Positions 1,813 to 55,655 of a DNA stretch of 64,000 bases are shown piece by piece. The stretch lies in the NCBI GenBank assembly GCA_025993795.1, contig JAMQHL010000033.1:3078-67077 (forward strand), in the 5' to 3' direction. The notes under the pieces are model-generated. The model made no database searches. It was not told where the DNA came from and worked only from the letters and a program-made list of their open reading frames with translations. The stretch is from Planctomycetota bacterium. Lineage in GTDB: Bacteria > Planctomycetota > UBA8742 > UBA2392. Position 1 is the stretch's first letter. Each line of letters opens with the position of its first letter. A program made the position numbers and the translations under genes.

Positions 1813-4800
1813 ATGAGGACAACGCTTACCGTTTTGCTGCTGTTGCTCGCTGGCTCACTGACTGCCCAAGCCGGGCCGAAACCCAAGCCGGTGCTTGATC
1901 CCGCACAGGGAGCACCAGGGGCACGCTACCCGGCGCTGACACCGGACAAGCAGACTGTCGTGTTCAGCCTTCACGGCGACCTTTGGTCAATCCCGGCCGC
2001 CGGCGGGCGCGCGACCCGCCTGACCCTGCATGACGCCTATGACAGCCGCCCGCTGGTGACGCCTGACGGCAAGCAGGTGGTGTTCGTCAGCGACCGCGCC
2101 GGCAGCTACGACATTTGGGTCATGCCCATAGACGGCGGCACACCGCGCCGCCTGACGCACCACTTTGCTTCGGATGTGCCCAACGCATTCACAGCCGATG
2201 GCAAGAACCTGCTGTTCACCAGCACCCGCGCCATGGGCTGGAGCCGCGGCGGCAGCACCGAAATCTGGTCGGTGCCGCTTGCCGGTGGCACGCCGACGCG
2301 CGTTACGTTTACGGGCGCCAACTCGGCCTCTACGCCGGACAATGGCGACACCCTGTATTTCGTGTCAGGGCCCAGCGACGCCAAGGTCCAGGAGTATCAG
2401 GGCACAGCCAACGACCGCCTTTACGTGCAGCGCGGCAGCGAGCCCGCTGAAGAAATTCTTTACTTTCAGGGCAATAGCCGCGAGCCAAGCGTCAGCCGCG
2501 ACGGCAAGCGCCTGCATTTCACGCGTGAAGTCAACGGCAGCTTCGAGTTGTTCATCTGCGACACGACAAGCCAGACCTGTGAACAGGTCACGAGCCTGGG
2601 CGAAGACGGCCTCAGCATGGTCGCGTTCGCGCCCGACGACAGCATGATTGTGTTCGGGTGGAAGTTCTATCTGTGGACGCTGGACCTGACGGTCAAGGAC
2701 GCCAAGCCCAAGCTGTTGAAGATCGAGATCCGTGAAGACAGCAGTGGCGAAAAACTCGTCGAGCGCCGCTTCAGCGAGGGAGTCAGCCGCGCAAGCCTTA
2801 GTGCCGATGGCCGCCGCACCGTCTTCAGCCTTGGCGGCGACCTGTGGGTGATGGACGCCAATGGTGGCACCGCAACCGCCGTTACCAACGACGCGTTCCA
2901 GAATGACAACCCTAAGTTTTCACCCGATGGCAAGACCATCAGTTTCTACAGCAACCGCAGCGGCAACAGTGACATCTGGCTGATCGACGCAAGCGGGCAG
3001 AACCTGCGCCAGTTCACGAACAACCCTGCCGACGAGTTCTTCCAGAACTGGAGCCCGGACGGGCAGGCTCTGGTCTTCTGCAGCACGCGCAGTGGCAACA
3101 AGGACATCTGGATGCGCCGGCTGGACGGCTCGGCCGAAGTACAGCTCACGTCCGACGCCGCCAACGACGACGACCCGGCGTTCAGCCCCGACGGCCGCTT
3201 CATCCTGTTTGACAGCGGGCGCGGCGCGCCTAACAGCGCCAACATATGGATCATGGATGCTGACGGCAGCAACCAGCGCCGTGTATACGGCAGCACAGCC
3301 ATTGAAGAAGTGCCGGTCATGAGCCCCGACGGCCGCTTCATCCTGTTCGACCGCATCACGCGCGGCGGCACGTTTGTGCGCCAGGAAGTTGTGATGACCG
3401 ACCTGGCCGGCAGCGGCGAAGTCGTGATCGCCACCGGCGCCCACGGCTGCTTCACGCCCGACGGCAAAGAAATCCTGTTCGTGACCGCCGACGGCAAGCT
3501 GAACTACACGCCGACGCCGCTTGGCATCCAGAGCGGGCGCAGCGTGCCGTTTGTGGCGTCGCGCAAGGTCAGCGAGAAGGCCGAAATGCTCAAGGCCTTT
3601 GACGAGGCTCACGCGGCGTACCTTGAGTCGTTCTATGACCCCAAGTTCCACGGCAAGGACTGGGCCGCGCTGGGCAGGCAGTACCGCGCGCTGGTCGAGG
3701 CCTCAGGGTGCCGCGAAGAGTTCTTGTATTACCTGAACCGCATGGTCGGTGAAGTCAGCGCCAGCCACAGCGGCGCATCCAACCGCACCATGTTCACCGA
3801 ACGCACCGAGACTGGCTACCTGGGCCTGGAACTGGTGCCCGAGCGCATGCAGGGCAACCGAATGCGCCTGCACGTCGCGGAAGTAGAGAAGGGCGGCCCC
3901 GGCGATGCGGCATGGATTCGCAAGGGCGATTACGTCTTCCGCATTGACCGCAAGCCGCTGGCATTCACCGATGATTTCTATGAGCACTTGGACGGCAAAG
4001 TCGGTGTCGAAACCAGCCTGTTCGTTGCCGACAACCCGGAAGGCACAAACTTCCGTGAAGTGAAGGTAACGCCCGAAAGCTGGGCCCAGCGCCGCCAGCG
4101 CATGTACATGCAGTTCGTCATCGGCAACAAGCAGGCGGCTGCCCAGCAGACCCGCGGCCAGGTTGCCTATGTGCACATCCCCGGCATGAACCAGACCGCG
4201 CTGAACAACTTCCAGAACGAACTGGCCAGCCCCGCGGTGCAGGGCGCCAAGGCGCTGATCATTGACGTGCGCGACAACGGCGGCGGCAACATCCACCAGC
4301 AGTTGATCGACCTGCTGTCACGCAAGCCCTACGCGTACATGACGCTGCGTGACGGCCGCCGCATCAACCAGCCGACGGTTCACTGGGACCGCCCGATCGT
4401 CGTGCTGATCAACGAGCGCAGCTACAGCGACGCGGAAGTTTTCCCGCATGCGCTGAAGACGCTGGGCATGGCAACGATTATCGGTGTGCAGACGCCCGGT
4501 GCCGTAATCGGCACGCGCGACATTCGCCTGAGTGACGGCACCAACTGGCGCCTGCCCAGCACCGGGTTCTTTACATGGGACGGCACGAACCAGGAACACA
4601 ACGGTTGCAAACCCGACATTGAGGTGCAGATTACGCCCGCCGACATTCTCGCGGGTCGCGATACGCAATTGGCCAAGGCCATCGAGGTCGCGCACGAGCA
4701 AGCCCGCAACGGCGGCAAAGCACCGACCACAACCAAGCAGCCGGAACAGCCCAAGCCGAACAAGCCACTGAAAGAAGGCGAGTTCACCGAACCCGCGGCC

Positions 4801-4815
4801 CTGCCCTGGGAGTAG
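1813..4815 (+). CDS. Tricorn-like protease: secreted TolB/PD40 beta-propeller repeats plus a C-terminal S41 (tail-specific) peptidase domain
   Basis: 1000 aa. Signal peptide MRTTLTVLLLLLAGSLTAQA. Many PD40-type repeats (SPDGK..VF.S.R.G..DIW). C-terminal S41 motifs IIDVRDNGGGN and ERSYSDAEVF. GAGGGAG SD upstream of the ATG. Confidence 0.85.
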   Translation: MRTTLTVLLLLLAGSLTAQAGPKPKPVLDPAQGAPGARYPALTPDKQTVVFSLHGDLWSIPAAGGRATRLTLHDAYDSRPLVTPDGKQVVFVSDRAGSYDIWVMPIDGGTPRRLTHHFASDVPNAFTADGKNLLFTSTRAMGWSRGGSTEIWSVPLAGGTPTRVTFTGANSASTPDNGDTLYFVSGPSDAKVQEYQGTANDRLYVQRGSEPAEEILYFQGNSREPSVSRDGKRLHFTREVNGSFELFICDTTSQTCEQVTSLGEDGLSMVAFAPDDSMIVFGWKFYLWTLDLTVKDAKPKLLKIEIREDSSGEKLVERRFSEGVSRASLSADGRRTVFSLGGDLWVMDANGGTATAVTNDAFQNDNPKFSPDGKTISFYSNRSGNSDIWLIDASGQNLRQFTNNPADEFFQNWSPDGQALVFCSTRSGNKDIWMRRLDGSAEVQLTSDAANDDDPAFSPDGRFILFDSGRGAPNSANIWIMDADGSNQRRVYGSTAIEEVPVMSPDGRFILFDRITRGGTFVRQEVVMTDLAGSGEVVIATGAHGCFTPDGKEILFVTADGKLNYTPTPLGIQSGRSVPFVASRKVSEKAEMLKAFDEAHAAYLESFYDPKFHGKDWAALGRQYRALVEASGCREEFLYYLNRMVGEVSASHSGASNRTMFTERTETGYLGLELVPERMQGNRMRLHVAEVEKGGPGDAAWIRKGDYVFRIDRKPLAFTDDFYEHLDGKVGVETSLFVADNPEGTNFREVKVTPESWAQRRQRMYMQFVIGNKQAAAQQTRGQVAYVHIPGMNQTALNNFQNELASPAVQGAKALIIDVRDNGGGNIHQQLIDLLSRKPYAYMTLRDGRRINQPTVHWDRPIVVLINERSYSDAEVFPHALKTLGMATIIGVQTPGAVIGTRDIRLSDGTNWRLPSTGFFTWDGTNQEHNGCKPDIEVQITPADILAGRDTQLAKAIEVAHEQARNGGKAPTTTKQPEQPKPNKPLKEGEFTEPAALPWE

Positions 4816-4885: not shown

Positions 4886-5833
4886 CTACCCACGGATACG
4901 TCTGGCGATTCGAGGTGCGGCGAAAAGGGTCAATACCATGGCAAGCAGCACCGCAAACGATGCCGACGTGCCGGACTCGCGAGTGCTACAGTCCGAGTCG
5001 CCGGGTCCTGTTCCTGCACCCGGCTTTGAAGCATCGTAATGGAACTGTTGCGCCAACGTGATTGGTCCCAACAACGATGTGGTAACAACTACGTCGTAGT
5101 AGCCGTCAGTTCCCCCCAAGTTTGGCGTTACCCACCCAGAGCCAAAAGTGTGCGACGCGTTGATCGTGCCAGTGCCGAGATCAACTCCACCAATCGACAC
5201 CGACACCGGAGGGGTGAACCCAGAACCAGTAATTCTGAAGAAAGAACCGTACCGACTAGACGCCGGATCGATGGTGGTGACGAAGAAGATCACGATTGAA
5301 AACGTTGAGGAATCCGGCGTAGGCGTACCAAAGCTGACCGTTGCTGGCCCCTGAACATTCACGTCAGTTATGTTCGTAATACTGACTTGAAAGGTCTCAG
5401 CGACGCTCGCACCTGCGCCCGCGAGAAAATCGGCAACAACCCAAACGTCCACAGACGTTGCGTCTGGAACGGTCAACGTACTCGTGAAGTTGACCGTGAT
5501 CGTTGGTGATGCACCACCAGTTGATCCAAGATTCGTATCCAGCGTCGAACTGAAGCTGCCATCCCCATCGTCCTGCCAGACGCTGATTCCAGTACTCGGG
5601 TCGAGGTCATTCGCAAAGTCACCGGTGCCGCCAACCGTAAGCGTAATACCGTCAACCATCACGGCCCCACCGGAAGCCGCAAGGGTCACAGCCGCGAGTT
5701 CCTGTGAAAAAGCCGTGCCACCTTGCACCCCCGCTGCCGTCGGAGAGTTCGTGGACAACGAAACGGTCAACTGCTGGCCAAACACCGAGCCTGCGGCCAT
5801 CATGACAACCATTACCCAGAAAAGCCTTAGCAT
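4886..5833 (-). CDS. Secreted surface protein, paralogue 1 of 3: signal peptide, ~170-aa beta-rich N-domain, IPT/TIG domain, C-terminal Cys-motif/TM/Arg-cluster tail
   Basis: 315 aa. Signal peptide MLRLFWVMVVMMAAGSVFGQQ. IPT/TIG-like [23 protein letters not shown]...YDVVVTT. Tail [47 protein letters not shown] upstream. Confidence 0.85.
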   Translation of the reverse strand: MLRLFWVMVVMMAAGSVFGQQLTVSLSTNSPTAAGVQGGTAFSQELAAVTLAASGGAVMVDGITLTVGGTGDFANDLDPSTGISVWQDDGDGSFSSTLDTNLGSTGGASPTITVNFTSTLTVPDATSVDVWVVADFLAGAGASVAETFQVSITNITDVNVQGPATVSFGTPTPDSSTFSIVIFFVTTIDPASSRYGSFFRITGSGFTPPVSVSIGGVDLGTGTINASHTFGSGWVTPNLGGTDGYYDVVVTTSLLGPITLAQQFHYDASKPGAGTGPGDSDCSTRESGTSASFAVLLAMVLTLFAAPRIARRIRG

Positions 5834-5886
5834 GAACCCACCACCTCCAACCTGTGGTTTCCACCATGCCCAAGCCTGATTACATG

Positions 5887-6828
5887 CTACCCACGGACAC
5901 GTCTGGCAGTTCGAGGCACAGCGAACAGGACTGCCAGCGCTGTCAAGAGGAACACTAACGACGCGGATGTACTGGAGTCGCGAGTACTACAGTCGCCGGT
6001 GCCCGCACCATCTGCGTCATCAATAACCTCAGAGTGGTGGTATGTCTGGGCTAGTGTAATCGGGCCAAGAAGCGATGTAGTAACGACTACTGGATAGTCG
6101 CCACTTGGGCCAAGGTTCGGCGTCGTCCAACCAGACGCAAACGAGTTTGCGCCGTTTACCGATCCTGTGCCGAGGTCAATACCACCAATCGAAACGGATA
6201 CGGGCGGTGTAAAACCCGAGCCAGTGATTTCAAAGGGAAGGTTACGGTAACCCGAAGCAGGGCTAAAGGACGTAACGAAGAATATTACCACAGAGAGCAC
6301 TGTCGAATCCGGCGCCGGAGTGCCAAGACTGACTGTCGCTGGCGTCTGCACATTTACGTCACCGGCATTCGCGACACTCACCTGGTACGTGTCTGGAATG
6401 CTCGCACCTGCGCTAGCGAGGAAGTCTCCGACGATCCACAGTTCAACCGACGTTGCGTCTGGAACGGTCAACGTACTAGTGAAGTTGACCGTGATCGTCG
6501 CCGATGCACCACCGGTTGCTCCAAGGCTCGTATCCAGCGCCGAGTTGAAGCTGCCATCTCCGTCATCTTGCCAGACGCTGAGACCCGTACTTGGGTCGAT
6601 GTCATTCGCGAAGTCACCTGTGCCGCTGACTGTAACCGTTATGCCGTCAACCATTACGGCTCCTCCCGATGCGGTCAACGTCAGCGCAGCTAGCTCCTGT
6701 GAAAAAGCCGTGCCACCTTGCACCCCCGCTGCCGCCGGAGAGTTCGTGGACAACGAAACGGTCAACTGCTGGCCAGACACCGAGCAAGCGGCGAGAAGGA
6801 CAACTGTTGCTCCGATCCATCGCAACAT
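5887..6828 (-). CDS. Secreted surface protein, paralogue 2 of 3 (same architecture)
   Basis: 313 aa, roughly three-quarters identical by eye to paralogues 1 and 3. Tail GTGDCSTRDSSTSASLVFLLTALAVLFAVPRTARRVRG. Confidence 0.85.
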   Translation of the reverse strand: MLRWIGATVVLLAACSVSGQQLTVSLSTNSPAAAGVQGGTAFSQELAALTLTASGGAVMVDGITVTVSGTGDFANDIDPSTGLSVWQDDGDGSFNSALDTSLGATGGASATITVNFTSTLTVPDATSVELWIVGDFLASAGASIPDTYQVSVANAGDVNVQTPATVSLGTPAPDSTVLSVVIFFVTSFSPASGYRNLPFEITGSGFTPPVSVSIGGIDLGTGSVNGANSFASGWTTPNLGPSGDYPVVVTTSLLGPITLAQTYHHSEVIDDADGAGTGDCSTRDSSTSASLVFLLTALAVLFAVPRTARRVRG

Positions 6829-6879
6829 GAATTGTGGTCTCCGCCCACTGCCACAGACATGCCCAAGGCCAACTACTGC

Positions 6880-7857
6880 CTACCCACGCACACGCCTTGC
6901 TATGCGAGGCGCAGCAAACAGTGCGGCTAGGGTGGCAAGGAGAACCAGAAACGAAGCCGACGTGCCGGATTCGTGAGTGCTACAGTCCGACCCGTTGTTA
7001 CCTGTTCTGCCGCCTGGCTTGGTCGAGTCATAGTAGAACTGTTGCGTCAGAGTTATCGGGCCGAGTAAAGACGTGGTAACCACAACGTCGTGATATCCAT
7101 CGTTGGGGCCAAGGTCTGGAATCACCCAGCCCGATGCGAACGTGTTTGCGCCGTTTACAGTGCCCGTGCCCAAGTCAATTCCACCAATTGAAAGCGAGAC
7201 CGGCGGTGTGAAACCAGAACCGTAAATCCGAAAGAATGTGTTGTGGTAGCTCGACGCGGGGTCAATCGACGACACAAAAAAGATCACAACAGAAAGTTGC
7301 GCTGAGTCGGGTGCCGGTGTGCCAAGACTGACTGTAGCGGGTGCCTGTACGTTTACGTCACCGATACCCGCGACACTCACTTGGTATGTGTCGGGAATGC
7401 TAGCACCGGCGCTAGCGAGGAAGTCGGCAACAACCCAAACATCCACGGAGGTAGCGTCTGGAACGGTCAACGTACTCGTGAAGTTGACCGTGATCGTCGG
7501 CGATGCGCCACCGGTTGACCCCAGATTCGTATCCAGCGCCGAGTTGAAGCTGCCATCTCCGTCATCTTGCCAGACGCTGAGACCCGTACTCGGGTCGAGG
7601 TCGTTTACGAAGTCACCCGTGCCGCCAACTGTCAACGTGATGCCGTTAATCTGGACCGCTCCACCCGACGCCGAAAGAGTGAACGCCGCAAGTTCTTGTG
7701 TAAACGCCGTCCCGCCTTGGATACCCGAAGCCGCCGGCGAGTTTGTGGAAAGAGCTACAGTCACCTGCTGAGCCGCCAAAGAGCGGCCAACGGTCAGCAC
7801 TAGAAAGAGAATAGCCAGGCCTCTTAGCCAACGAGCGCTGGCCACGTTCACCAGCAT
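6880..7857 (-). CDS. Secreted surface protein, paralogue 3 of 3 (same architecture)
   Basis: The track ORF extends to 7980. I trimmed it to ATG 7857 ([31 protein letters not shown]), which gives a signal peptide aligned with paralogues 1 and 2; ATG 7872 is an alternative. Tail [37 protein letters not shown]. Confidence 0.8.
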
Positions 7858-8059
7858 GTGCCACTCAGCCATGAGCTTGAGGTCTTCTCGCGGCAATGTG
7901 CGATCAACGTCCTTCTTCGGGGCTGCAATCTTCACGTCGATGGCAGTTGTCGCGTCGTCGGGCATCGCTTGCCTGATCATACCATCGCTGTCCCCGCACT
8001 GTGACTACACAATGCGGGCGCGGTGTGTACGCTGCGCCCGCCTCTTGCGGAGCAACGCC

Positions 8060-11393: not shown

Positions 11394-12854
11394 CTAATCC
11401 ACCGGCTCAGGTTCACCCTCGGTTGGCGGAGCTTCCTGCTGGCCGTCCTGTGTCCATGTAATGTCGGCGGCGTGGCCTTCTCCGCCCGGCTCGCCATCGC
11501 TGCCCAGGCACGTCAGCGTGTAGCCGGCATCGGTAAGTTCGTAACGGAATGCGTGGTCCCACGGATCGTTCGGGACTTCTCCGCCGGCCAGCTTGTCTTT
11601 GATGTCATCCAGCGACTCAGGAAATTTACCGGTATCGTCTCTGTAGACCTTCAGCTTCTCGGCGATGTCGCGCATCTGCTCGGTGGCGATTTCTGCCAGT
11701 CCCTCGTCGTTCTTATTCTCGTTGATCGGCGCAACTTTCACGATTCCGCGCCGACCCCGTCCGATCCGTCCCTCAGTCGATGAGCCGGGCAGCGGCGCAA
11801 TATGGTCGGCATCTTCCTTCATGCCGCCCGCCTGCCCGTCTTTGCCCAGCGCCACAATCGCGAAGTTCTCATCATCCAGGCGCAGATAAATGTATTCGCG
11901 ACCCCAATCATCAGAAGGGATGTTGTTGCGCAGCGCGTTGGCCTGCTTGCCATCCTTCAGCGGGATCGGTCGGGTCAGGTCCATCAGCTCATCGGGAAGT
12001 TTGCCAACCTGCTGGCGCCAGGTCTGTACCTCTTCGGCCAGGTTCTGCACCTGCCAGTCCATGTTGCGCTCAAAGCCGCCGCCCCACTCGTCTGTGTCGC
12101 GCGTCTGGCGCCGTATGTCGCGTTCTGAGATGACAAAGTCAACGTCACGGCCGGTGCCGCCTTCCACTCCGTCGGCACCCCAGCACACAATCGCAATGTT
12201 GTCCTGGGGCAGAATCCGTATGGCATACTCGTTGCCCCAAGGGTCGGTGAAACAGGCGTTGACGGCTTTGTCTTCGGCTTCTGTGCCAGTCCGCTTCGCG
12301 GATTCCAGTTTGGCGGGCCAACTGCCCTTCTCGCGCCTGTGCTGCACTACCTCAATGCCGACTGCGACCATGCGCGCGCGCGCCAGCGTAACCCGGGCCT
12401 CGTGGCGTGCGGCGTCGCGTTGCTTGTCCAGCTCGGCCTGCTGGTTGGCATTCAGTTCAACCTTCTCGCCATTGCGCGTGAAAGTGATGTCTGCGGCGCC
12501 GCCCTCTCCGCCCTGCTTGGCATCGGCCCCGAGGCTGACCAGCTTGTAGCCCGCTTCTTCGTCCAGGCTGTAACTGAACTCGTTGCCCCATGCGTCCTTA
12601 GGCACAGCATCGCGCAGGTTTGCATCTACAAGCTTCTGCAGTTTCTCAGGATACTTGTTCTCATTCGTGCCCGACCACGCGCGAAGGTCCTGGGCAAGGC
12701 TGCGCATTGTTTCGCGCGTTTCGCGCATCTTGGTGCGGTCGGTGCGGCTGATACGATCCTGCGCGGTTGCGGAAATCGCAATCCCGAACACCAGCACGCA
12801 GCAAAGCAGCAGGCGATACAGCATGGGAAGCTCCAGACCGTTCATACTACGCAA
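11394..12854 (-). CDS. Secreted protein with four tandem type II secretion GspG-like (pseudopilin head) domains
   Basis: 486 aa. N-terminus MLYRLLLCCVLVFGIAISATAQD is a signal/anchor, not a prepilin G-F-T-L-x-E leader. Four repeats, each with a helix followed by a (D)(P/A/D)WG..(Y/F).Y ... G.DG..GG...D(I/V) pattern: KDAWGNEFSY..LGADAKQGGEGGAADI; DPWGNEYAI..WGADGVEGGTGRDVDF; DDWGREYIY..LGKDGQAGGMKEDADHI; DPWDHAFRY..LGSDGEPGGEGHAADI. Confidence 0.8.
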   Translation of the reverse strand: MRSMNGLELPMLYRLLLCCVLVFGIAISATAQDRISRTDRTKMRETRETMRSLAQDLRAWSGTNENKYPEKLQKLVDANLRDAVPKDAWGNEFSYSLDEEAGYKLVSLGADAKQGGEGGAADITFTRNGEKVELNANQQAELDKQRDAARHEARVTLARARMVAVGIEVVQHRREKGSWPAKLESAKRTGTEAEDKAVNACFTDPWGNEYAIRILPQDNIAIVCWGADGVEGGTGRDVDFVISERDIRRQTRDTDEWGGGFERNMDWQVQNLAEEVQTWRQQVGKLPDELMDLTRPIPLKDGKQANALRNNIPSDDWGREYIYLRLDDENFAIVALGKDGQAGGMKEDADHIAPLPGSSTEGRIGRGRRGIVKVAPINENKNDEGLAEIATEQMRDIAEKLKVYRDDTGKFPESLDDIKDKLAGGEVPNDPWDHAFRYELTDAGYTLTCLGSDGEPGGEGHAADITWTQDGQQEAPPTEGEPEPVD

Positions 12855-18911: not shown

Positions 18912-19727
18912 ATGGAATACTCGGCTGAAAAGGAGTTTGCGTTCGATTGGATGCGGGAGGTAGCAGAGGTCCTGCGTCCTTACATCGCGGACACCCGGCG
19001 CCGCACCGACTCAACGCGTTCGAAAGCAGCCGACGACGTGGTCACTACCGCCGACCTTGCCGTCAGTGAACTGCTGATTCGCCGCATCTCGGCGCTGTTC
19101 CCGCGCGACGCGATCTGCAGCGAAGAGGGCTCTGCGCACGATGACCCCGCGCGTCGGCGCCGCTGGATTATCGACCCGATCGACGGCACGCGAAGTTTCA
19201 TTGCAGGCGTGCCCGGCTACAGCGTCATGCTTGCACTGGCCGTAGAAGGCACGCCGGTCTTTGCCGTCGTGTACGACCCCGTGAAAGATGAGACGTGGTG
19301 GGCTGCCGAAGGCCAGGGCGTATGGCGCGGTGAACAGCGCGTGCTGCGCCACAGTCGCCCACCCCGCTTGATCTGGAGCCCCTTTGCACCCCGCGAAGCG
19401 GGCGAAGCAGTAGCGCGCGGCCTGGGTGTCGACGGCATCGTTATGGCCGAAAGCTTTGGGGTGCGCGCAGCCATCATGGCAAAGGACGGCGGCGGGGTGT
19501 GCGCGTCGCGCCCCGGCGGACCGCACATCTGGGACACAGCCGCGGGCTGGGTGATCGTGCGCGAAATCGGCGGCAGGGTTACCGGCTACGACGGCTCGCC
19601 CGTTGAGTACCCGCATGCACCGACGCTTCACCCAAGCGGATTTGTGGCGACACTGGGCGTCGACCACAACAAGGCGAGCGAATTGATGCGCGAGTACCTG
19701 CCGGGCCTGGAATCAGGACCGGCCTGA
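18912..19727 (+). CDS. Inositol monophosphatase / CysQ family phosphatase
   Basis: 271 aa with the IDPIDGT and WDTAAG family motifs. Confidence 0.85.
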   Translation: MEYSAEKEFAFDWMREVAEVLRPYIADTRRRTDSTRSKAADDVVTTADLAVSELLIRRISALFPRDAICSEEGSAHDDPARRRRWIIDPIDGTRSFIAGVPGYSVMLALAVEGTPVFAVVYDPVKDETWWAAEGQGVWRGEQRVLRHSRPPRLIWSPFAPREAGEAVARGLGVDGIVMAESFGVRAAIMAKDGGGVCASRPGGPHIWDTAAGWVIVREIGGRVTGYDGSPVEYPHAPTLHPSGFVATLGVDHNKASELMREYLPGLESGPA

Positions 19728-19818
19728 GCACTTCCGCCTGTCGCTGACCGCCGACGGCATCCGTGTATGTGCGCGGTTGCTTGACCCGTTCTTCCTATGC
19801 TCTGCCGTGCAGCGCGCT

Positions 19819-21897
19819 ATGGTCGATACCGTGGAACTGCTGAACCTGACCAACCCCAGTCTCTACATCAACCGGGAGCTGTCGCTGCTGGATTTCAACC
19901 GCCGCGTGCTGGCCCAGGCCGGCGACGCAGGTGTCCCGTTGCTTGAGCGCATGCGCTTTCTCTCGATCTCGTGTAACAACATGGACGAGTTTTTTGAGAT
20001 CCGCGCCAGCGGCATCAAGCAGCAGACCGAGGCTGGTGTCTCGACGGCGGGCCCCGACGGCATGACGCCGCGCGAGCTGCTGGCGGCGATCAGCACCACC
20101 GCCCGGTCGCTGGTCGCTGAGCAATACCGGCTGTTCAACGACGTGCTGCTGCCCGAGCTGGCAGCCACGCGCATTCGCATTCTGCGCCGCACGGACTGGA
20201 CCGCCGAACAGGCGGCCTGGGTGCGCGAATATTTCTTGCGAGAGGTCTATCCCCTGTTGACACCGATCGGGCTCGACCCTGCGCACCCGTTTCCGAACGT
20301 CCTGAACAAGATTCTCAATTTCTTCGTGGTGCTGGAGGGCAAGGACGCGTTTGACCGCAACAGCGGTACCGCGGTGGTGCAGGCCCCGCGCCTTGTGCCC
20401 AGGCTGATCCGGATGCCGTCGGACGTATCGGGGGGCATGCACGACTTCGTGCTGCTGTCGGCGGTGATGCACGCCAACATCGGCGACCTGTTTGCGGGTA
20501 TGGAGGTCAAGGGCTGCTACCAGTTCCGCGTCACGCGAAACAGCGACCTTTGGGTGGATGAAGAAGAAGTTGAAGACCTGCTGGATGCCGTTCGTTTTGA
20601 GCTGCCGCGACGGCACTACGGCGCGGCAGTGCGCCTTGAGGTCGCGGAGAGCTGCCCGCCTGACGTCGCGCGCTTCCTGCTGGACCACTTTCACCTGCGC
20701 GAGGAAGACCTTTACCAGTTCAACGGCCCGGTGAACCTGAACAGGCTGATGGCCCTGTACGACCTCACGGACCGGCCCGAGCTCAAATACCCGGTGCACA
20801 AGGCCGGCATCGCTCGCGAACTGCAACCGGGCGGGGAGCTGCTGGAAGTGCTGCGGGCACGCGACGTGTTACTGCATCACCCGTACCAGTCATTTGGCCC
20901 GGTGCTTGAGTTCGTCCGCGCCGCCGCCAAGGACCCGGCGGTGGTCGCGATCAAGAGCACGCTGTACCGCACCGGTGCCCACAGCGAGATCGTCGATGCC
21001 CTGTATGACGCTGCGCGCGCCGGCAAGGAAGTCACAGCCGTCGTCGAGCTTCGGGCGCGTTTTGACGAAGCCGCAAACGTCGACCTTGCCACGCGCCTGC
21101 AGACTGCCGGCGCCCATGTGGTGTACGGCGTCGTGGGTTACAAGACCCATGCCAAGATGCTGCTGGTAGTGCGGCGCGAAGAGGGCGGACTGCGCCGATA
21201 CGCGCACCTGGGCACGGGCAACTACCACACGGGCACGGCGCGGACGTACACCGACCTCGGGCTCCTGACTAGCAACGAACAGATCTGCGACGACATCAAC
21301 CAGCTGTTTCGTGAACTGACCAGCCTGGGAGTCGCCCCGAAGCTTCAACGGCTGTTCTATTCGCCGTTCACGCTGAACGACGAGTTACTGGCACGAATCA
21401 ACGAACAGGCAGAACTTGCGCGGCTGGGCAAGCCCGCCATGATTCGCGCCAAGATGAATGCGCTGTCCGACCCTGGCATCATCAAGGCGCTGTATCTGGC
21501 ATCGCTCGCGGGCGTCCGGATTCAACTGCTGGTGCGCGGCGTGTGCTGCCTGCGCCCGGGGATTGCCGGCGTCTCTGACAGCATTGTCGTGCGCTCGATT
21601 ATCGGACGCTTTCTTGAGCATTCGCGCGTCTACAGTTTTGGTCCGGAAGGCGACATCACCTACGCCTCCAGTGCCGACTGGATGCAGCGCAACCTGTTCC
21701 GGCGTGTTGAAACCTGCTTTCCCATCCTCGACCCCGACCTGCGCGCCCGGGTGGTCGAAGAGTGCCTTGACATCCCCCTCAGGGACAACGTACAGGCATG
21801 GCAGCTCCAGCCGGATGGAACGTGGGTACGCTGCACTCCGGGCAATGACCCGCCCCTGGTCAGCCAGGAGATTCTTGCAGCACGGCTGGGTGGTTAA
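19819..21897 (+). CDS. ppk: Polyphosphate kinase 1
   Basis: Track ORF starts at TTG 19777; I prefer ATG 19819 (MVDTVELLNLTNPSLYINRELSLLDFNRRVLAQA, a typical PPK1 N-terminus). Full-length four-domain PPK1 pattern including the YKTHAKMLLVVRRE region that carries the phospho-His. Confidence 0.9.
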   Translation: MVDTVELLNLTNPSLYINRELSLLDFNRRVLAQAGDAGVPLLERMRFLSISCNNMDEFFEIRASGIKQQTEAGVSTAGPDGMTPRELLAAISTTARSLVAEQYRLFNDVLLPELAATRIRILRRTDWTAEQAAWVREYFLREVYPLLTPIGLDPAHPFPNVLNKILNFFVVLEGKDAFDRNSGTAVVQAPRLVPRLIRMPSDVSGGMHDFVLLSAVMHANIGDLFAGMEVKGCYQFRVTRNSDLWVDEEEVEDLLDAVRFELPRRHYGAAVRLEVAESCPPDVARFLLDHFHLREEDLYQFNGPVNLNRLMALYDLTDRPELKYPVHKAGIARELQPGGELLEVLRARDVLLHHPYQSFGPVLEFVRAAAKDPAVVAIKSTLYRTGAHSEIVDALYDAARAGKEVTAVVELRARFDEAANVDLATRLQTAGAHVVYGVVGYKTHAKMLLVVRREEGGLRRYAHLGTGNYHTGTARTYTDLGLLTSNEQICDDINQLFRELTSLGVAPKLQRLFYSPFTLNDELLARINEQAELARLGKPAMIRAKMNALSDPGIIKALYLASLAGVRIQLLVRGVCCLRPGIAGVSDSIVVRSIIGRFLEHSRVYSFGPEGDITYASSADWMQRNLFRRVETCFPILDPDLRARVVEECLDIPLRDNVQAWQLQPDGTWVRCTPGNDPPLVSQEILAARLGG

Positions 21898-21905
21898 GAG
21901 GCTGC

Positions 21906-23435
21906 GTGCGACTGGCATCGATCGATATCGGCTCGAACTCGGTTCACATGATCATTGCGGACGTTACCGGCCCGCAGTCGTTCTTTGTCGTTGATCGTGA
22001 GCGTGAGCGGGTCAAGCTGGGCGCAGGCGCGTTCAAGACCGGCAAGCTGCGGGCCGCGCCGATGCAGGCCGCACTGGATGCGCTCAAGCGGTTCGCGCTG
22101 CTGTGCAAACGCCTGGGCGTGCAGCGGATTCACGCCGTGGCAACAAGCGCCGTTCGCGAAGCACGCAACGGGCGCACATTTCTTGCCGAGGTCAAGCGGC
22201 GCACCGGCATCGTTGCGAAACCAATCGGCGGCAAGGACGAAGCCGGCTTGATCTATCGCGGCATCCGCCACGCCACTGACCTGCGGGGCCGGCGCGCGCT
22301 GATGCTGGACCTTGGCGGCGGCAGCCTTGAGATCATGTACGGCAACGACCAGCGACTTGCAATTGCCGAGAGTCTGCCGCTGGGCGTGCAGCGCCTTCGC
22401 GACAATTTTGGTGGCCAGGACCCGCTGCCGCGCCGCGCGCGCGAACGCCTGGTCAAGCATATCCGCCAGACAGCCAAGCCGGTGCTTGAACGCATCCGCA
22501 AGCGCGGCATTGGTGCCGTGATCTGCACCTCGGGCACGCAGATGACGCTGGGGCTGGCGTGCCTGCGCCTTCGCGGCCGTGACCCTTGGGGGTCGCTGAA
22601 CGGCTACGTGATCCAGACCAGTGAACTGCGTGACCTGCACCGCCAGTTGATCGACACCGATGCGCCGGGGCGTTCGCGCCTGCCGGGAATTGACGAACGC
22701 CGCTCGGACATCGTGCACTACGGTTCGGCGGTGCTCGCGACGGTGCTTGAGATTGTCGGGGCCGGCGAGTTCCAGCTTTGTGGCGCGAGCCTGCGCGAGG
22801 GCCTGCTGCTGCAGCGTATGGAAGAGACGGGCGCACGGCGCGACGCACAGTCAGTACGGGTTTCCGCCGCCACGGAGCTTGTGCAGCGCACCGGCGGTGA
22901 ACCGCGCCGGGCACGGCGGGTCGCTGACCTTTCGCTCAGGCTGTTCGATGGCGCCCGGCGCGCGCACAAGCTGGCAAAACGCGAACGCGGGCTGCTCGAG
23001 ATCGCGGCGCTGGTGGCCGACCTGGGCCGGCATCTTTACCACGAAGACCGCGAGCACCTTACCTACCAGATTGTGCGTGGCGGTGGGCTGCGAGGTTTGA
23101 CCGACACCGAGCTTGAGACTGTCGGGCTGACTGCACGCTATTCCCGCGGCGGCGCGCCCAAGGCCAGGCACCGCCACTTCGCAGAGCTGGACACCGATTC
23201 GCAGCACATTGTGCGTGTGCTGGCGGGCATCCTGCGCATTGCCGACGGGCTTGACCGGGGCCGCGCCGGCGTGGTCAAGGACATTCGCTGCCGCCTCACG
23301 CGAGACACGCTGCGAATCTCACCCGTCGTCCGCGGCGACGCCAGCCTGGAATTGTGGTCTGCAACCAGGGCCGCCAAGCTGTTTGCCCAGGCGGTAGACC
23401 TCGAGGTCCTGATCCACGGCACCAAGCCGCGCTGA
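21906..23435 (+). CDS. ppx: Exopolyphosphatase (Ppx/GppA family) with C-terminal HD-type domain
   Basis: 509 aa. N-terminal ASIDIGSNSVHMIIADV motif. GTG start 8 nt after the ppk stop. Confidence 0.9.
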   Translation: MRLASIDIGSNSVHMIIADVTGPQSFFVVDRERERVKLGAGAFKTGKLRAAPMQAALDALKRFALLCKRLGVQRIHAVATSAVREARNGRTFLAEVKRRTGIVAKPIGGKDEAGLIYRGIRHATDLRGRRALMLDLGGGSLEIMYGNDQRLAIAESLPLGVQRLRDNFGGQDPLPRRARERLVKHIRQTAKPVLERIRKRGIGAVICTSGTQMTLGLACLRLRGRDPWGSLNGYVIQTSELRDLHRQLIDTDAPGRSRLPGIDERRSDIVHYGSAVLATVLEIVGAGEFQLCGASLREGLLLQRMEETGARRDAQSVRVSAATELVQRTGGEPRRARRVADLSLRLFDGARRAHKLAKRERGLLEIAALVADLGRHLYHEDREHLTYQIVRGGGLRGLTDTELETVGLTARYSRGGAPKARHRHFAELDTDSQHIVRVLAGILRIADGLDRGRAGVVKDIRCRLTRDTLRISPVVRGDASLELWSATRAAKLFAQAVDLEVLIHGTKPR

Positions 23436-23450
23436 CCGGCGCCGGCTTTT

Positions 23451-24983
23451 CTATTCCAGCGTGGCCAACACTCTGTCAATTCCGCCCGACTCGACCACTT
23501 CGCGGACGCTGGCGAAGTCGTCGTGCAATACTCGATCCTGCTTGAGCGGCTTGACCACCCTGCGAAGGGCATCGGCGATTGCTTCGACGTTGCTGCCGGC
23601 CTTCAGCGGCTTGTGGTAATCCAGCGCCAGCCGCCCCGCCAGCAGCTCGATGCTGACGATGTGCTGCAAGTTCTCGAAAACCATCGCCGCCTTCAACGCG
23701 GCGGTAACACCCATGCTGACGTGGTCTTCTTTGTTGGCGCTGGTGGGAATGCTGTCGACACTGGCGGGATGGCTGAAGACCTTGTTTTCGCTAGCCAGTG
23801 CAGCCGCCACGACCTGCGCGATCATCAGCCCGCTGTTCAGGCCGCTGCCCTGCACGAGAAATGGCGGCAGGTTTGAAAGGTCCGGATTGACCATCTGCTC
23901 GGTGCGGCGCTCGCTGATGCTGCCGAGCTCCGACATCAGGATTGCAAGAAAGTCGAGCGCCTGGGAAAGCGGCTGGCCATGGAAGTTACCGGCGCTGATC
24001 ACGTCGCCGTCTTCTGGAAACAGCAGCGGGTTGTCGGTCACGGCGTTGAGTTCGCGCTCAAAGATCTGTTTTACGAAGGCAAATCCGTCCCGGGCCGCGC
24101 CATGCACCTGGGGCACGCAGCGCAGCGAGTAGGCGTCCTGTACGCGCGGGTCGTTCTCGCGGTGACTTTCGCGGATTGCGCTGCCCTGCAGCATCTTGAG
24201 CATGTTGCGCGCCACCAAGGCATGGCCGGGGTGCGGGCGAATCGCCGCCACGCGCGGGTCAAAGGGGCTGTCGCTGCCGCGCATTGCCTCCAGCGTAAGG
24301 GCCGCTGCCGCGTCACACACCTTGATCCAGCGCTCCATGCCACAGATCGTCGCTAAGCCGATGGCCTGGATGATCTGCGTGCCATTGATCAGCGCCAGGC
24401 CTTCTTTGGCCTTGAGCGTGATGGGCTTGAGGCCGGCCTTCTTGAGTGCTGCAGCGGCTTTGCCGAGCTTGCCGTGGCGGTACGCCTTGCCTTCGCCCAA
24501 CAGGGTCAGCGCGATGTGCGCCAACGGCGCCAGGTCGCCCGATGCGCCGACGCTGCCCTTGCGGGGCACCCAGGGGGCCACGGGCGAGTTCAGCAGCGCG
24601 ACAAATGCATCTACCACATCCTGGCGCACGCCCGAGTTGCCGCTGACCAGGCTGTTCACGCGAAGCAGCATCGCAAGCCGGACAACCGGCAACGGCAGGG
24701 GCTCACCGACACCGCAAGCGTGGCTGCGGATCAGGTTGAGCTGCAACCGGTCAAGCTGCTCGTCAGGGATGCGGACGCTGGCCAGTTTGCCAAAGCCGGT
24801 GTTCACGCCGTAAACCGGCTGGTTGCGTGCGAGCAGTTGCTCGACAAAGGCGCGGCCGCGCTTCACCGCCGCACGCGCGCCAGATGACACTTCCACGGAC
24901 GAGTAGCCGTCATGCAGAAAGCGGTCGACCTGGGCAAGCGTCAAGGACTGCCCATCCAGCGTAAGCGTGTCTCGTTTAGCCAT
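23451..24983 (-). CDS. hutH: Histidine ammonia-lyase
   Basis: 510 aa. MIO-forming GSVGASGDLAPLAH motif. NLIRSHACGVG carries the S-H pair typical of HAL rather than PAL/TAL. Confidence 0.9.
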   Translation of the reverse strand: MAKRDTLTLDGQSLTLAQVDRFLHDGYSSVEVSSGARAAVKRGRAFVEQLLARNQPVYGVNTGFGKLASVRIPDEQLDRLQLNLIRSHACGVGEPLPLPVVRLAMLLRVNSLVSGNSGVRQDVVDAFVALLNSPVAPWVPRKGSVGASGDLAPLAHIALTLLGEGKAYRHGKLGKAAAALKKAGLKPITLKAKEGLALINGTQIIQAIGLATICGMERWIKVCDAAAALTLEAMRGSDSPFDPRVAAIRPHPGHALVARNMLKMLQGSAIRESHRENDPRVQDAYSLRCVPQVHGAARDGFAFVKQIFERELNAVTDNPLLFPEDGDVISAGNFHGQPLSQALDFLAILMSELGSISERRTEQMVNPDLSNLPPFLVQGSGLNSGLMIAQVVAAALASENKVFSHPASVDSIPTSANKEDHVSMGVTAALKAAMVFENLQHIVSIELLAGRLALDYHKPLKAGSNVEAIADALRRVVKPLKQDRVLHDDFASVREVVESGGIDRVLATLE

Positions 24984-25013
24984 GGCGGGAAGTTAGCTGC
25001 GCCAGCAACCGAT

Positions 25014-25658
25014 TCAATGGACAGAGGGGCGGGGCCTTCGCAGCAAGTGAACAGCGAAGGAAAGAGACAGCGGCACAACCAATGCAAGTAGCCTAGTTGT
25101 GGGGTACTCCGGGTTGTTGGCCCGTATGCCGGTGAAACCAAGCGGCCCGGTCGTGTAGGTGACGGCGACCCCGACTGCCATGATCATGGGAAGGGCCAGA
25201 GCGGCCACCACATGGTTGCGGCGAATCCGTCCCAGTAGCACGTCTCTTCTGAAACACGAAACTGTGATTGAAGCTGTTGCAAGAACCAATCCAATCACAG
25301 CGCCACAGACAGCTTGCCAACGGGGAAACCCGCCGTACTCGACGTACGCCTCTATGGACTCTTGGGGCAGCACAAAGAACGTCAGCACGCCGATATGAAG
25401 GAGAACGCACGAGAGGCCGACACCCTGCAACGGGCTGCTGGGCCGGACTGACGCGAAAAATGCTGCGATCATGCCGAATTGCAGCGTGAGGGGCGCGCCT
25501 ATAGTCCAGCGGTCCATCCCCAAGCCAAGCCCAGCCCCAGCCAAATTGTCACCCAAAGGGCGAACAATGCCATCTATGATGAATAGCGACACAATCAACA
25601 AACCACAGCTAACGCCTGCGCTAATCAACCGAGGCGAACCTGTTGCGTCTTTGGACAT
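25014..25658 (-). CDS. Polytopic membrane protein, hypothetical
   Basis: Trimmed to ATG 25658 (MSKDATGSPRLISAGVSCGLLIVSLFII...). About 6 predicted hydrophobic helices and no recognisable motif. Visibly more A/T-rich than its neighbours. Confidence 0.55.
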   Translation of the reverse strand: MSKDATGSPRLISAGVSCGLLIVSLFIIDGIVRPLGDNLAGAGLGLGMDRWTIGAPLTLQFGMIAAFFASVRPSSPLQGVGLSCVLLHIGVLTFFVLPQESIEAYVEYGGFPRWQAVCGAVIGLVLATASITVSCFRRDVLLGRIRRNHVVAALALPMIMAVGVAVTYTTGPLGFTGIRANNPEYPTTRLLALVVPLSLSFAVHLLRRPRPSVH

Positions 25659-25739
25659 ATAGCAATCGTAGACGTTGGGCAGTTGGCAGCAAAACACAAT
25701 ACCGGATTGAATAGGCAAGATTGGCCGTCAACCGGCAAT

Positions 25740-35436: not shown

Positions 35437-35679
35437 CTACCCGTAAATGTACTGCATGGTTTCGGGCAGTCTTTTCACGGCCCAGCCGTTCCAGACAGCC
35501 CTGCACGCGCATTGGTAGTACGTGAAGGTGTCGTCGCCGGGGCAGGGCTGCACAAGGTCCATGTTGCCGGTCGCACGCGCGATGCGCATAACGCCGGTCA
35601 CGCCATCTGCGGGACTGAACGAGTACTGAACGAATTGCTCGTCCTCGCTGGATTTCCAGATGTAGATATAGACTGCCAT
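35437..35679 (-). CDS. Small cytoplasmic protein (80 aa), hypothetical, translationally coupled to the upstream decarboxylase gene
   Basis: MAVYIYIWKSSEDEQFVQYSFSPADGVTGVMRIARATGNMDLVQPCPGDDTFTYYQCACRAVWNGWAVKRLPETMQYIYG. Its ATG shares one nucleotide with the upstream TGA stop (CTGATGG). Third codon positions are strongly G/C-biased (hand check). Confidence 0.6.
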   Translation of the reverse strand: MAVYIYIWKSSEDEQFVQYSFSPADGVTGVMRIARATGNMDLVQPCPGDDTFTYYQCACRAVWNGWAVKRLPETMQYIYG

Positions 35680-36608
35680 CAGTGCTTCCTGAACCACTCG
35701 ATGGTGCGGCGCAGTCCTTCGTCCAGGCCGATTCGCGGCTCGAACGCCAGCTCTTTTCTTGCGCGCGCGATGTCGGGACAGCGGCGCGCTGGGTCGTCCT
35801 GCTGCGCAGGCTTCAAGACGGGTTGCGAAGAAACGCCGGCAAGGGCTGCAATGCGAGCAGCCAGCTCGCGCACCGTGACTTCGTGGGGATTGCCAAGGTT
35901 GAAGGGCTCGTGGCGCAACGACCCCGCGTACTCCATCAGGGTGCGCAGGCCAGCCACCATGTCGTCGACGTAGCAGAAGCTGCGGCTCTGGCTGCCATCG
36001 CCATACAGTTCCGGTGGGATGCTGCTCAGCGCCTTGAGGATGAAGTTGCTGACGACACGGCCATCATCGGCTTGCATGCGCGGGCCGTATGTGTTGAAGA
36101 TACGGGCGATGCGGATGTCCACTTTGTGTTCGCGGTGGTACTCCATCATCAGGGTCTCGGCGATGCGTTTGCCCTCGTCATAGCAGGCGCGGGGGCCGAG
36201 CTGGTTGACGTTGCCAAGGTAGCTCTCGGGCTGTGGGTGCACTTTGGGGTCGCCGTATACTTCGCTGGTGCCGGCCAGCAGAATGCGGGCGCCAGTGCGC
36301 CGCGCCAGGCCCAGCATGTTCATGGTACCGAGCACGTTGGTTTTCACCGTACGCACGGGGTTGCTGCGGTACGCAACGGGGCTTGCCGGGCATGCGAGGT
36401 GGTAGACGCGGTCCGCCTCGGTGACATAGGGCAGGATCAGGTCGTGCTGGACAAACTCAAATTGCGGGTTGCCGATCAGCGGTGCAAGGTTTTCGATACG
36501 CCCCGTGCTGAGATTGTCCAGGCAGACGACGTAGTGACGCTCTTGAAGCAGCGCCGCGCACAGGTGGCTGCCGATGAATCCCGCGCCGCCAGTTACCAGG
36601 ATTCTCAT
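35679..36608 (-). CDS. uxs: UDP-glucuronate decarboxylase (UDP-xylose synthase) / NAD-dependent sugar epimerase-dehydratase
   Basis: Trimmed to ATG 36608 (MRILVTGGAGFIGSHLC), 309 aa. Extended SDR pattern with CYDEGKR, typical of the UXS/ArnA decarboxylase subgroup. Confidence 0.8.
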   Translation of the reverse strand: MRILVTGGAGFIGSHLCAALLQERHYVVCLDNLSTGRIENLAPLIGNPQFEFVQHDLILPYVTEADRVYHLACPASPVAYRSNPVRTVKTNVLGTMNMLGLARRTGARILLAGTSEVYGDPKVHPQPESYLGNVNQLGPRACYDEGKRIAETLMMEYHREHKVDIRIARIFNTYGPRMQADDGRVVSNFILKALSSIPPELYGDGSQSRSFCYVDDMVAGLRTLMEYAGSLRHEPFNLGNPHEVTVRELAARIAALAGVSSQPVLKPAQQDDPARRCPDIARARKELAFEPRIGLDEGLRRTIEWFRKH

Positions 36609-36609
36609 C

Positions 36610-37368
36610 TCAGTCCGCAAGGGCGCCGTCAGCAACCGCGTCGACCAGCAGTGCCGTGCCCAGGGCATTCGTCACGCCGCCTACAATGCGCAGTGTGATG
36701 CCCAGCGCGCGCTCAAGGTCCTGCAACCACGACTGGTCGAGGAACAGCACGTCGCCGGGGTGCAGGGGCAAGTCAGGCGAGCCGCCGCGCACGGCCTCCG
36801 CCAGGTCGTAGCGGTACACCTGCCGGCCCTTGATCGACTTGATGTTTCGCACGATGTAAAGGTAGGGGGCTACGTCGATATCCGGCTCACCGGCGCCGCC
36901 GGCAAGTGCCACGGCTTCGATTACGCCCATGCCCTTGCGGTACGGAATGGTGCCGCCGGTGTTTTTCTGGGCGCCCAAAGCGTATGAGCTGCTGCCGCCG
37001 AAGTTGCCGAGAAATACGATCGGGTCGGGTCCGCCGGCGCGCTCCAGATAGACAGTCATGGTGGGCGACGCGTACCACGGCTCGAGCTTTTCCTTGATCA
37101 GATCGCGCGTCTCGACCAGCGTCAGGCCCATCAGGTCAATGTGCCCGGCCCAGCGAAACGTTGCGCTGCCATCGGGCAGCACAGTCGCGGCGAAGTTGTA
37201 ATCCTTATCTTCGGCAATTTCGACGCGCACGATGTCGCCCGGGTTGATCCGATACACGTAGTTGTCGGGCGGCAGTTCCTGCAGCGTGGTCACGTCAATC
37301 GCATTCTCGGGGCCGGCACAGCCCCAAAGTGCAAACACTGCGCATGCGATGAACCCAAGTCCCTTCAT
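36610..37368 (-). CDS. Polysaccharide export outer-membrane lipoprotein (Wza-like: Poly_export plus SLBB domain)
   Basis: 252 aa. Lipobox FALWGC. YRINPGDIVRVEI and later PLHPGDVLFL motifs typical of Wza/GumB-type exporters. ATGA overlap with the upstream PCP gene. Confidence 0.8.
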   Translation of the reverse strand: MKGLGFIACAVFALWGCAGPENAIDVTTLQELPPDNYVYRINPGDIVRVEIAEDKDYNFAATVLPDGSATFRWAGHIDLMGLTLVETRDLIKEKLEPWYASPTMTVYLERAGGPDPIVFLGNFGGSSSYALGAQKNTGGTIPYRKGMGVIEAVALAGGAGEPDIDVAPYLYIVRNIKSIKGRQVYRYDLAEAVRGGSPDLPLHPGDVLFLDQSWLQDLERALGITLRIVGGVTNALGTALLVDAVADGALAD

Positions 37369-39443: not shown

Positions 39444-39533
39444 GCCATATCCACAGTACCACCCGAATCACCGAAAATGTGGCGATTGGGGCAAACTTCG
39501 CTACCTTTTAAAGATTATCGACATTCCTTGCCC

Positions 39534-42151: not shown

Positions 42152-42157
42152 CGGTGC

Positions 42158-52496: not shown

Positions 52497-52522
52497 CCAG
52501 CCGAGAATAGATTCTCGGCTGG
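52497..52522. promoter_or_regulatory. Perfect palindrome 55 nt upstream of katG (candidate operator; alternatively a hairpin)
   Basis: CCAGCCGAGAAT-AG-ATTCTCGGCTGG, with 12-nt perfectly complementary arms and an A/T-rich core GAGAATAGATTCTC. No T-tract follows. Confidence 0.5.
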
Positions 52523-52534
52523 CGACGTTGATGA

Positions 52535-54727
<2,193 letters not shown>

Positions 54728-55006
54728 CCACACCGACTGGCAATCAGAACCACGAGCTGTCAGATGGCCCCCCAGAATCGCCGAACGGGCCCAGAGATTG
54801 GACCCATTCGGCAGTCGGCGCGGGCGGCTGATTCGTCGCCCGAGCTGACGTTGGCAGCGGCACCTGAATGCCTGCAATCATGGCGGCGGCTACGCAGCGA
54901 TTGAGGAACGCCGTTGAATTGTGCTCAGACTGCAACAAAGGTCTGCTTGAGGGCCAGAAGCCGTTCGGCCCCTCGACTTATCCTGCCCCTTCGCCACACT
55001 GCCGCC

Positions 55007-55633: not shown

Positions 55634-55655
55634 ACAATGGGTCCCGGGCACAGCG

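Follow-up and report, generated by a model that had tools for sequence, protein, structure and literature searches.

Three tandem secreted proteins of a Planctomycetota bacterium were analyzed for the tail that each of them carries at its C-terminus. The genes lie in a 64,000-nucleotide stretch of assembly GCA_025993795.1 (contig JAMQHL010000033.1), referred to here in its full length as the window. The minus strand carries the three paralogous open reading frames (ORFs) in head-to-tail order (4886-5833, 5887-6828 and 6880-7857), and each product ends in a single Cys, a hydrophobic helix and an Arg cluster. Cys-type C-terminal signals and the CPBP-family proteases termed "myxosortases" were defined recently and are documented in Myxococcota, Bradymonadales, some Proteobacteria, Synergistota and Thermococcales. 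Judged by its sequence, the window tail is a divergent member of this known Cys-type class, of the MYXO-CTERM type, and extends it to another lineage with a local signature. Full-text literature searches returned no description of a MYXO-CTERM-type Cys signal in Planctomycetota. What is new here is a signal of this type, with a local signature, in a Planctomycetota lineage; it is not a new class.

The Cys-type tail and named sorting-signal models

A preliminary description of this DNA, made from the letters alone, had placed three tandem ORFs at these coordinates and had listed their tail strings and a W-x-DDGDG loop motif; all of these were found as claimed in the three paralogues, as was the tripartite arrangement of signature, helix and Arg cluster that had been likened to a sorting signal. 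In each window protein, a spacer of 10 residues separates one Cys from a hydrophobic helix of 14 residues, after which PRxARRxRG forms the final 9 residues. The Cys lies 33 residues from the C-terminus and is the sole Cys in the mature part of the protein. The paralogue 2 tail, for example, reads GTGD-C-STRDSSTSAS-LVFLLTALAVLFAV-PRTARRVRG. Linker and tail together occupy 4889-5035 in paralogue 1 (DASKPGAGTGPGDSD, then C282, codon 4988-4990), 5890-6036 in paralogue 2 (Cys codon 5989-5991) and 6883-7032 in paralogue 3 (Cys codon 6982-6984), all on the minus strand.

Two details of the preliminary description required correction. The hydrophobic stretch is present, but its strictly hydrophobic core is 14 residues long and the reported length of ~17 is reached only by counting flanking small residues and Pro. 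The tail had also been called strongly conserved, and it is no more conserved than the body. The three paralogues are 73-75% identical in pairwise comparison (mean column identity 83%), with 63-80% identity in the tail vs 75-79% in the body. A word-indexed search of 5.8 billion proteins retrieved eight close relatives, the only named one from a Planctomycetota metagenome-assembled genome (MAG); in these eight, column identity is 49% in the tail vs 59% overall, and the tail positions without any substitution are limited to one Gly, the Cys and one Arg. Linker length varies among them and the tail drifts (CSTSE, CTTSD, CTTSE, CAANA), with the Gly, the Cys, the helix and a basic residue kept.

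Tails were scanned against NCBIfam release 20, in which the MYXO-CTERM model TIGR03901.2 has a cut-off of 20 bits. This model, already named as the nearest idea in the preliminary description, scored best for the window tails, which when scanned alone gave 12.7, 16.4 and 20.3 bits for paralogues 1, 2 and 3. One window tail gave a weak IPTL-CTERM match (13.1 bits, cut-off 20.5), and no GlyGly-CTERM (TIGR03501), PEP-CTERM, Synerg-CTERM or JDVT-CTERM match was found for the window tails at E<=10. The tail of one relative (locus L005) scored 24.7 bits against MYXO-CTERM. Among 94 tails of the wider family described below, scanned alone at E<=6e-4, 25 matched MYXO-CTERM, 13 JDVT-CTERM, 8 Synerg-CTERM and 8 GC_trans_RRR. 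The best-scoring individual tails reached 39 bits for Synerg-CTERM (cut-off 22.5), 26 for MYXO-CTERM (cut-off 20) and 27.5 for JDVT-CTERM (cut-off 27); one tail that also exceeded the GlyGly-CTERM cut-off (17.9 vs 15.5) scored 39 on Synerg-CTERM. Canonical family tails also exceed the curated cut-off of GC_trans_RRR. MYXO-CTERM, Synerg-CTERM and JDVT-CTERM make up the bacterial Cys-containing class that has been assigned to CPBP-family myxosortases (Haft preprint, 10.1101/2023.06.07.544157). The threshold of an existing model is passed marginally in the window (20.3 vs 20) and clearly by relatives. Because relatives' tails pass named models and the window tails themselves score around or under the MYXO-CTERM cut-off, the tail is not a class apart, and the earlier statement that it matches no named class does not hold.

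The likeness to MYXO-CTERM (TIGR03901/TIGR03382) extends to an invariant Cys after a Gly-rich stretch, a hydrophilic spacer, an uncharged helix, a terminal Arg cluster starting with P-R, a length of ~34 residues and presence on Sec-exported surface proteins. The MYXO-CTERM tail of TraA, CCGTTADATPAGSTTFLLLLAAGLTFLRPRRPAR, has the same layout as the window tail, with Cys, hydrophilic spacer, helix and P-R-R, and its Cys-dependent cleavage by MrtX has been shown experimentally in M. xanthus (PMC11980579). However, MYXO-CTERM often has a second Cys (GCGC), whereas the window tails have a single Cys and no GCGC. Their D-C-S-T-(R/H)-(E/D)-S signature is local, with MYXO-CTERM scores around or under the cut-off. 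MYXO-CTERM is also found on dozens of unrelated clients and is served by the myxosortases MrtX, MrtC and MrtP; the clients described here are dominated by one passenger family, and none of these enzymes was seen near family genes in the DNA examined.

Comparison with the other named signals gave a similar mixture of shared and divergent features. In the case of Synerg-CTERM (TIGR04564, MrtS, Synergistota), the wider family shares a Ser/Gly-rich cluster ending in one invariant Cys, and many canonical family tails pass the model; Synerg-CTERM has no spacer and an invariant Pro in the helix, whereas in the window tails 10 residues separate the Cys from a helix that is free of Pro. JDVT-CTERM (NF033191, MrtJ, beta- and gammaproteobacteria) shares the single Cys and the tripartite layout, and some family tails reach its cut-off. 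Its near-invariant DP before a Leu-rich helix is missing from the window tails, and its clients occur once per genome beside the protease, in contrast to the three tandem copies with no adjacent CPBP gene found here. GlyGly-CTERM/rhombosortase, a type II secretion-dependent system of which there is a report from the planctomycete Rhodopirellula baltica (PMC3237569), shares the Gly-rich motif, helix and basic cluster, but the conserved residue here is Cys and no rhomboid gene lies nearby.

A Planctomycetota family of surface repeat proteins

An exhaustive profile search of 1.84 billion cluster representatives was performed to define the wider family and returned 231 representatives at E<=1e-3, 108 of them at E<=1e-30. 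Many members have a length of 1000-2300 aa and contain several stretches matched by the query, with a window-like unit at the C-terminus. All named members come from Planctomycetota MAGs, many of them from activated sludge, and lie outside the curated range of MYXO-CTERM, which comprises Myxococcota and Bradymonadales (10.1101/2023.06.07.544157). Genomes with family members include the MAGs GCA_016712285.1 (with a 4.1-Mb contig), GCA_020425605.1, GCA_020848275.1 and GCA_016860905.1, and the bin to which ERZ27309505 k141_71807 belongs. The same pattern was seen at loci from GTDB genomes and JGI metagenomes, and one relative contig encodes three tandem paralogues of 1000-1150 aa, each with a Cys-type tail. 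The possibility that the tail is confined to the three window paralogues is refuted outright by this family, of which the window genes are small members.

The C-terminal ending was surveyed in 156 sequences, namely the first eight close relatives and the family representatives among the matches listed. Cys, helix and basic cluster were present in 124 of these; a further 3 had helix and basic cluster without Cys, so that the Cys occurs in 124/127 helix-ended sequences. The remaining 29 had no terminal helix and include clear fragments and proteins with type IX secretion system (T9SS)-type endings. Because the genes have homologues and the same ending recurs in 124/127, the tail is far beyond chance. 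Measured in 112 clean tails, the distance from the Cys to the C-terminus is 22-39 residues (median 31); Gly stands before the Cys in 80 (71%) and Ser, Ala or Thr after it in 94. The linker ahead of the Cys is usually poly-Gly or rich in Ser and Asp. In the family consensus, a Gly-rich linker leads into G-C-[SAT]-[ATL], and a few residues that are small or acidic separate this motif from the helix and the closing RRR.

Small proteins of ~315 aa that share the signature C-[ST]-[ST]-x-[ED] make up a sub-group, which includes the D-C-S-T-(R/H)-(E/D)-S form of the window and is also represented by a tandem triplet in a MAG labelled genus UBA2392. Searches with the tail itself added little. A profile of the eight tails, too short and low in information as a query, gave 160 word candidates and none at E<=10 in the 5.8-billion-protein database, and a profile of 26 family C-termini retrieved only already-known close relatives. 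In GTDB genomes the pattern [DN]CST[RHS][ED]S[GS][TG]S occurred in 43 stretches, none of which was confirmed by tblastn; the exact DCST flavour is therefore not widespread. The window tail is not a class of its own but stands at the divergent end of a Planctomycetota family of far greater size.

Each window paralogue consists of a hydrophobic signal sequence ending just before QQ, a domain of ~160 residues, a beta domain of ~85 residues, a short linker and the tail. Paralogue 1 has 315 aa and paralogue 2, with the same architecture, 313 aa; paralogue 3 has 325 aa when counted from a start at 7857. The Sec-type signal peptide of paralogue 1, read from sequence, lies at 5774-5833 (MLRLFWVMVVMMAAGSVFG followed by QQ; helix at residues 2-15 in an AlphaFold2 model), with equivalent stretches at 6772-6828 and 7771-7857 in paralogues 2 and 3. 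The start of paralogue 3 is ambiguous, being placed at 7857 in the preliminary description, at 7965 by gene callers (361 aa) and at 7980 in the longest ORF. A signal peptide arises only from the start near 7857; the other two add a hydrophilic extension without signal-peptide character. Several public metagenome assemblies contain exact copies of the window proteins, among them paralogue 1 (P0001), the longest of the contigs measuring 123.5 kb; the window genes are therefore real.

The ~160-aa beta domain with the W-x-DDGDG loop (5294-5773 in paralogue 1; 6292-6771 and 7291-7770 in the others) has no Pfam match in the window proteins. W86, D88, D89, G90 and D91 are invariant in the eight close relatives, and the domain is repeated up to 25 times in relatives, with repeats visible in the proteins of loci L005, L006 and L010. 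This N-terminal repeat is a widespread surface-protein building block without a Pfam family. The second domain (5036-5290; equivalents 6037-6288 and 7033-7287) had been described as IPT/TIG-like, an assignment that was supported indirectly. Pfam TIG was undetected in the window proteins even at E<=10. The homologous terminal beta domain of the L005 relative matches PF01833 at 29.6 bits (cut-off 20.9), and the Prokaryotic Genome Annotation Pipeline (PGAP) names some family relatives "IPT/TIG domain-containing protein". Foldseek with the window model returned the IPT domains of plexin, Met and EBF1 (E ~1e-4 to 1e-5), and weak sequence matches to the Met and plexin IPT domains were found in the PDB. 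The AlphaFold2 model of paralogue 1, built from an 8-sequence alignment (mean predicted local distance difference test score, pLDDT, 71), shows two beta-sandwich domains, a disordered linker (272-292, pLDDT <50) and a terminal helix (291-310). The window passenger combines one beta repeat with an IPT/TIG domain, the layout of giant adhesin-like proteins in a one-repeat version, and its role is most likely structural or adhesive at the surface.

Other carriers of the tail were sought in ~380 kb of fetched flanking DNA; most known carriers had been found through passenger homology. Two carriers of other architecture were identified, both encoded beside family members in related genomes. One is a 664-aa protein with a lamin-tail domain (LTD) and three He_PIG Ig domains that ends in GGGGCAAAGAGP, a helix and RRRKNRS; at full length it scores 20.1 against TIGR03382 (cut-off 15.85). 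The other is a 1137-aa secreted protein without Pfam domains that ends in DGGSCSTGG, a helix and PRRKSSL; the family profile aligns with its tail alone, for which the MYXO-CTERM score is 19.8 bits. No further carrier of other architecture was present in the 64-kb window. Conversely, four distant relatives from other lineages (P0060, P0142, P0149 and P0150) are giants of 1552-5201 aa with 8-25 copies of the N-terminal repeat that end in T9SS-type or FlgD-Ig-like domains and not in the Cys tail; the T9SS sorting domain of P0060 scores 28.9 bits (cut-off 23). The two carriers and the T9SS-tailed relatives therefore indicate, in a small sample, that the C-terminal module is transferable and would act as a lineage-specific sorting device.

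Proposed sorting route and its alternatives

The best explanation, to which we assign a probability of roughly 60%, is that these proteins would undergo Sec export, anchoring by the helix, Cys lipidation, cleavage by an Mrt-like CPBP protease and surface display. It starts from the observed architecture, conservation pattern, model similarity and other passengers carrying the tail; each biochemical step is proposed by analogy. The N-terminal signal peptide is predicted to direct Sec export. The C-terminal helix would then stop transfer, leaving PRxARRxRG in the cytoplasm and the passenger in the periplasm as expected from the positive-inside rule. The single conserved Cys, ~10 residues outside the helix, could be lipidated as in M. 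xanthus TraA/MrtX, after which a myxosortase-like CPBP (Rce1-type) glutamic intramembrane protease would cut off the helix, on the same analogy. The lipid-anchored protein might finally reach the cell surface, possibly via a type II secretion-like system. The signal peptide of paralogue 2 (6772-6828) alone contains a lipobox-like L-A-A-C, the Cys of which is missing in the other two; it could reflect lipidation at both ends or may be an incidental match.

The processing enzyme was sought with Pfam lists of the loci, a screen for multi-transmembrane ORFs and a regular-expression search for the CPBP motifs EExxxR, FxxxH and HxxxN, the last covering the window and part of the fetched relative loci. 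Several results weigh against the proposed route. The 64-kb window, for which the preliminary description had already noted the lack of a sortase-like enzyme, contains no gene for a CPBP (PF02517), rhomboid or exosortase protein, and none was found within a few kb past its ends or in the neighbourhoods of ~15 relatives. In ~14,000 representative proteomes, no NF040914 match was reported outside Myxococcota and Bradymonadales (10.1101/2023.06.07.544157). At full length the window proteins stay under the MYXO-CTERM cut-off, with a match for paralogue 3 only (14.3 bits). The residue before the Cys is Asp in the window tails and Gly in the wider family, and several close relatives (P0006-P0008, P0012) run 10-40 residues past the basic cluster, which is atypical for sorting signals. 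Nearly all carriers found belong to one passenger family, with only two others, and the N-terminus of the 1137-aa carrier slightly resembles the family repeat, so that it may not be fully independent.

The absence of an enzyme from the loci examined is weak evidence either way, because sorting enzymes with many clients are not expected near those clients (10.1101/2023.06.07.544157) and the scan was limited to these loci. Two multi-transmembrane ORFs without annotation were read by eye in this context. One, at 2531-3331 of relative locus L006, is His-rich and transporter-like. The other, at 25014-25727 on the minus strand of the window, has ~6 predicted transmembrane helices, no Pfam family and no protease motif, and its terminal helix is followed by LLRRPRP.

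One alternative is that the tail is a plain, uncleaved C-terminal anchor by which the Ig-like ectodomain stays attached to the cytoplasmic membrane on its periplasmic side, with the Cys used for instance in an intermolecular disulphide or in S-acylation without cleavage. This alternative is unlikely. It would account for the lack of a visible processing enzyme, the sub-threshold full-length scores, the extra residues after the basic cluster and a tail conserved no more than the body. Such an anchor, however, has no need of an invariant Cys whose distance to the end is 22-39 residues and which has Gly before it in 71% of tails, amid drifting positions, and a hydrophobic core of 14 residues is short for stable anchoring. 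The occurrence of the same module on proteins of other architectures and the family tails that exceed the curated cut-offs of three processed-signal models also argue against it. Peptides covering FAVLLAMVLTLFAAPR that remained on the native protein would favour the uncleaved anchor.

It is quite unlikely that the tail is a genuine cleaved signal served by an enzyme other than a myxosortase-type CPBP protease, candidates being a rhomboid of the rhombosortase type with the Gly-rich stretch as its target, or an undescribed enzyme family specific to this planctomycete clade. The restriction of NF040914 to Myxococcota and Bradymonadales in Haft's survey fits such an enzyme, as do the rhombosortase system of R. 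baltica, the one family tail above the GlyGly-CTERM cut-off and the poly-Gly that precedes the Cys in most family tails. The invariant residue, however, is Cys and not a Gly-Gly pair adjoining the helix, the window tails match neither GlyGly-CTERM nor PEP-CTERM even at E<=10, and the tail that passes GlyGly-CTERM scores far higher on Synerg-CTERM (39 vs 17.9); rhomboid and exosortase Pfam families are likewise missing from the neighbourhoods examined. Processing by the adjoining convergent tricorn-like S41 protease (1813-4815), a link that the preliminary description had itself called speculative, is scarcely credible. The adjacency that suggests it exists in this window only and in none of the neighbourhoods of relatives examined, and a PD40/S41 enzyme is soluble or periplasmic, not intramembrane.

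A more far-reaching proposal, less likely than not when its parts are taken jointly, can be put forward tentatively. The uncultured Planctomycetota clade may run its own Cys-dependent sorting, with a signal that lies between MYXO-, Synerg- and JDVT-CTERM and that would serve mainly giant IPT-terminated repeat proteins and their one-repeat derivatives. The enzyme might then be a new lineage-specific Mrt subfamily or a non-CPBP protein, and C-S/T-T-x-(E/D) with the spacer might constitute a sub-signal.

Genomic surroundings and significance

The paralogue cluster differs in composition from its surroundings, with a third-position GC content (GC3) of 0.57-0.60 vs 0.72-0.82 in flanking genes and a local GC of 57-59% at 4886-7857 vs ~62% for the window; possible causes are recent acquisition and unusual codon usage. 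The mechanical ORF start of a malic enzyme gene on the plus strand (7856) overlaps the upstream part of paralogue 3, and the start given by gene callers near 8060 (752 aa) leaves a divergent intergenic region of ~100-200 nt. At 11394-12854 on the minus strand, 3.5 kb from the cluster, lies a gene for a secreted protein of ~480 aa in which several GspG-like repeats follow one another (DxWGxEY motifs; Pfam T2SSG). Its signal peptide is of the ordinary kind and not a prepilin leader. The protein, odd in architecture, could be related to type II secretion-dependent surface sorting.

Further along the window, a cluster for polysaccharide export and modification (35679-43576) encodes an epimerase, Poly_export, a GT4 glycosyltransferase and an MBOAT acyltransferase, together with a 692-aa protein and a ~520-aa protein with nine transmembrane helices, both without a Pfam family. 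A block at ~52500-56000 (catalase-peroxidase, a ~300-aa protein, PaaA_PaaC, TetR and a 229-aa gene) is syntenic with positions 19633-25632 of locus L020, on a 618-kb metagenome contig (ERZ2606016) that encodes a 2166-aa family member a few kb from the catalase-peroxidase block. This synteny suggests that relatives of the source organism carry both large and small family members. On an ENA contig labelled Planctomycetota genus UBA2392 (L013, 2897-11909), a gene for a 2030-aa RHS/YD-repeat protein is followed, at gaps of 1-18 nt, by tandem genes for three small family members of 330, 321 and 313 aa, with PT-HINT toxin and SUKH/Imm35 immunity genes nearby. The small Cys-tailed proteins of this UBA2392-labelled lineage are encoded within a polymorphic-toxin locus.

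If these genomes have no Mrt-like enzyme, the finding would point to a new sorting enzyme. If the proposed route is correct, the small 315-aa clients with their single Cys would form a clean test set for the generality of lipidation followed by CPBP cleavage, and the tail would be a ready marker for predicting planctomycete surface proteins. Cys-type sorting would then extend to Planctomycetota, a phylum in which cell-surface biogenesis is poorly understood.

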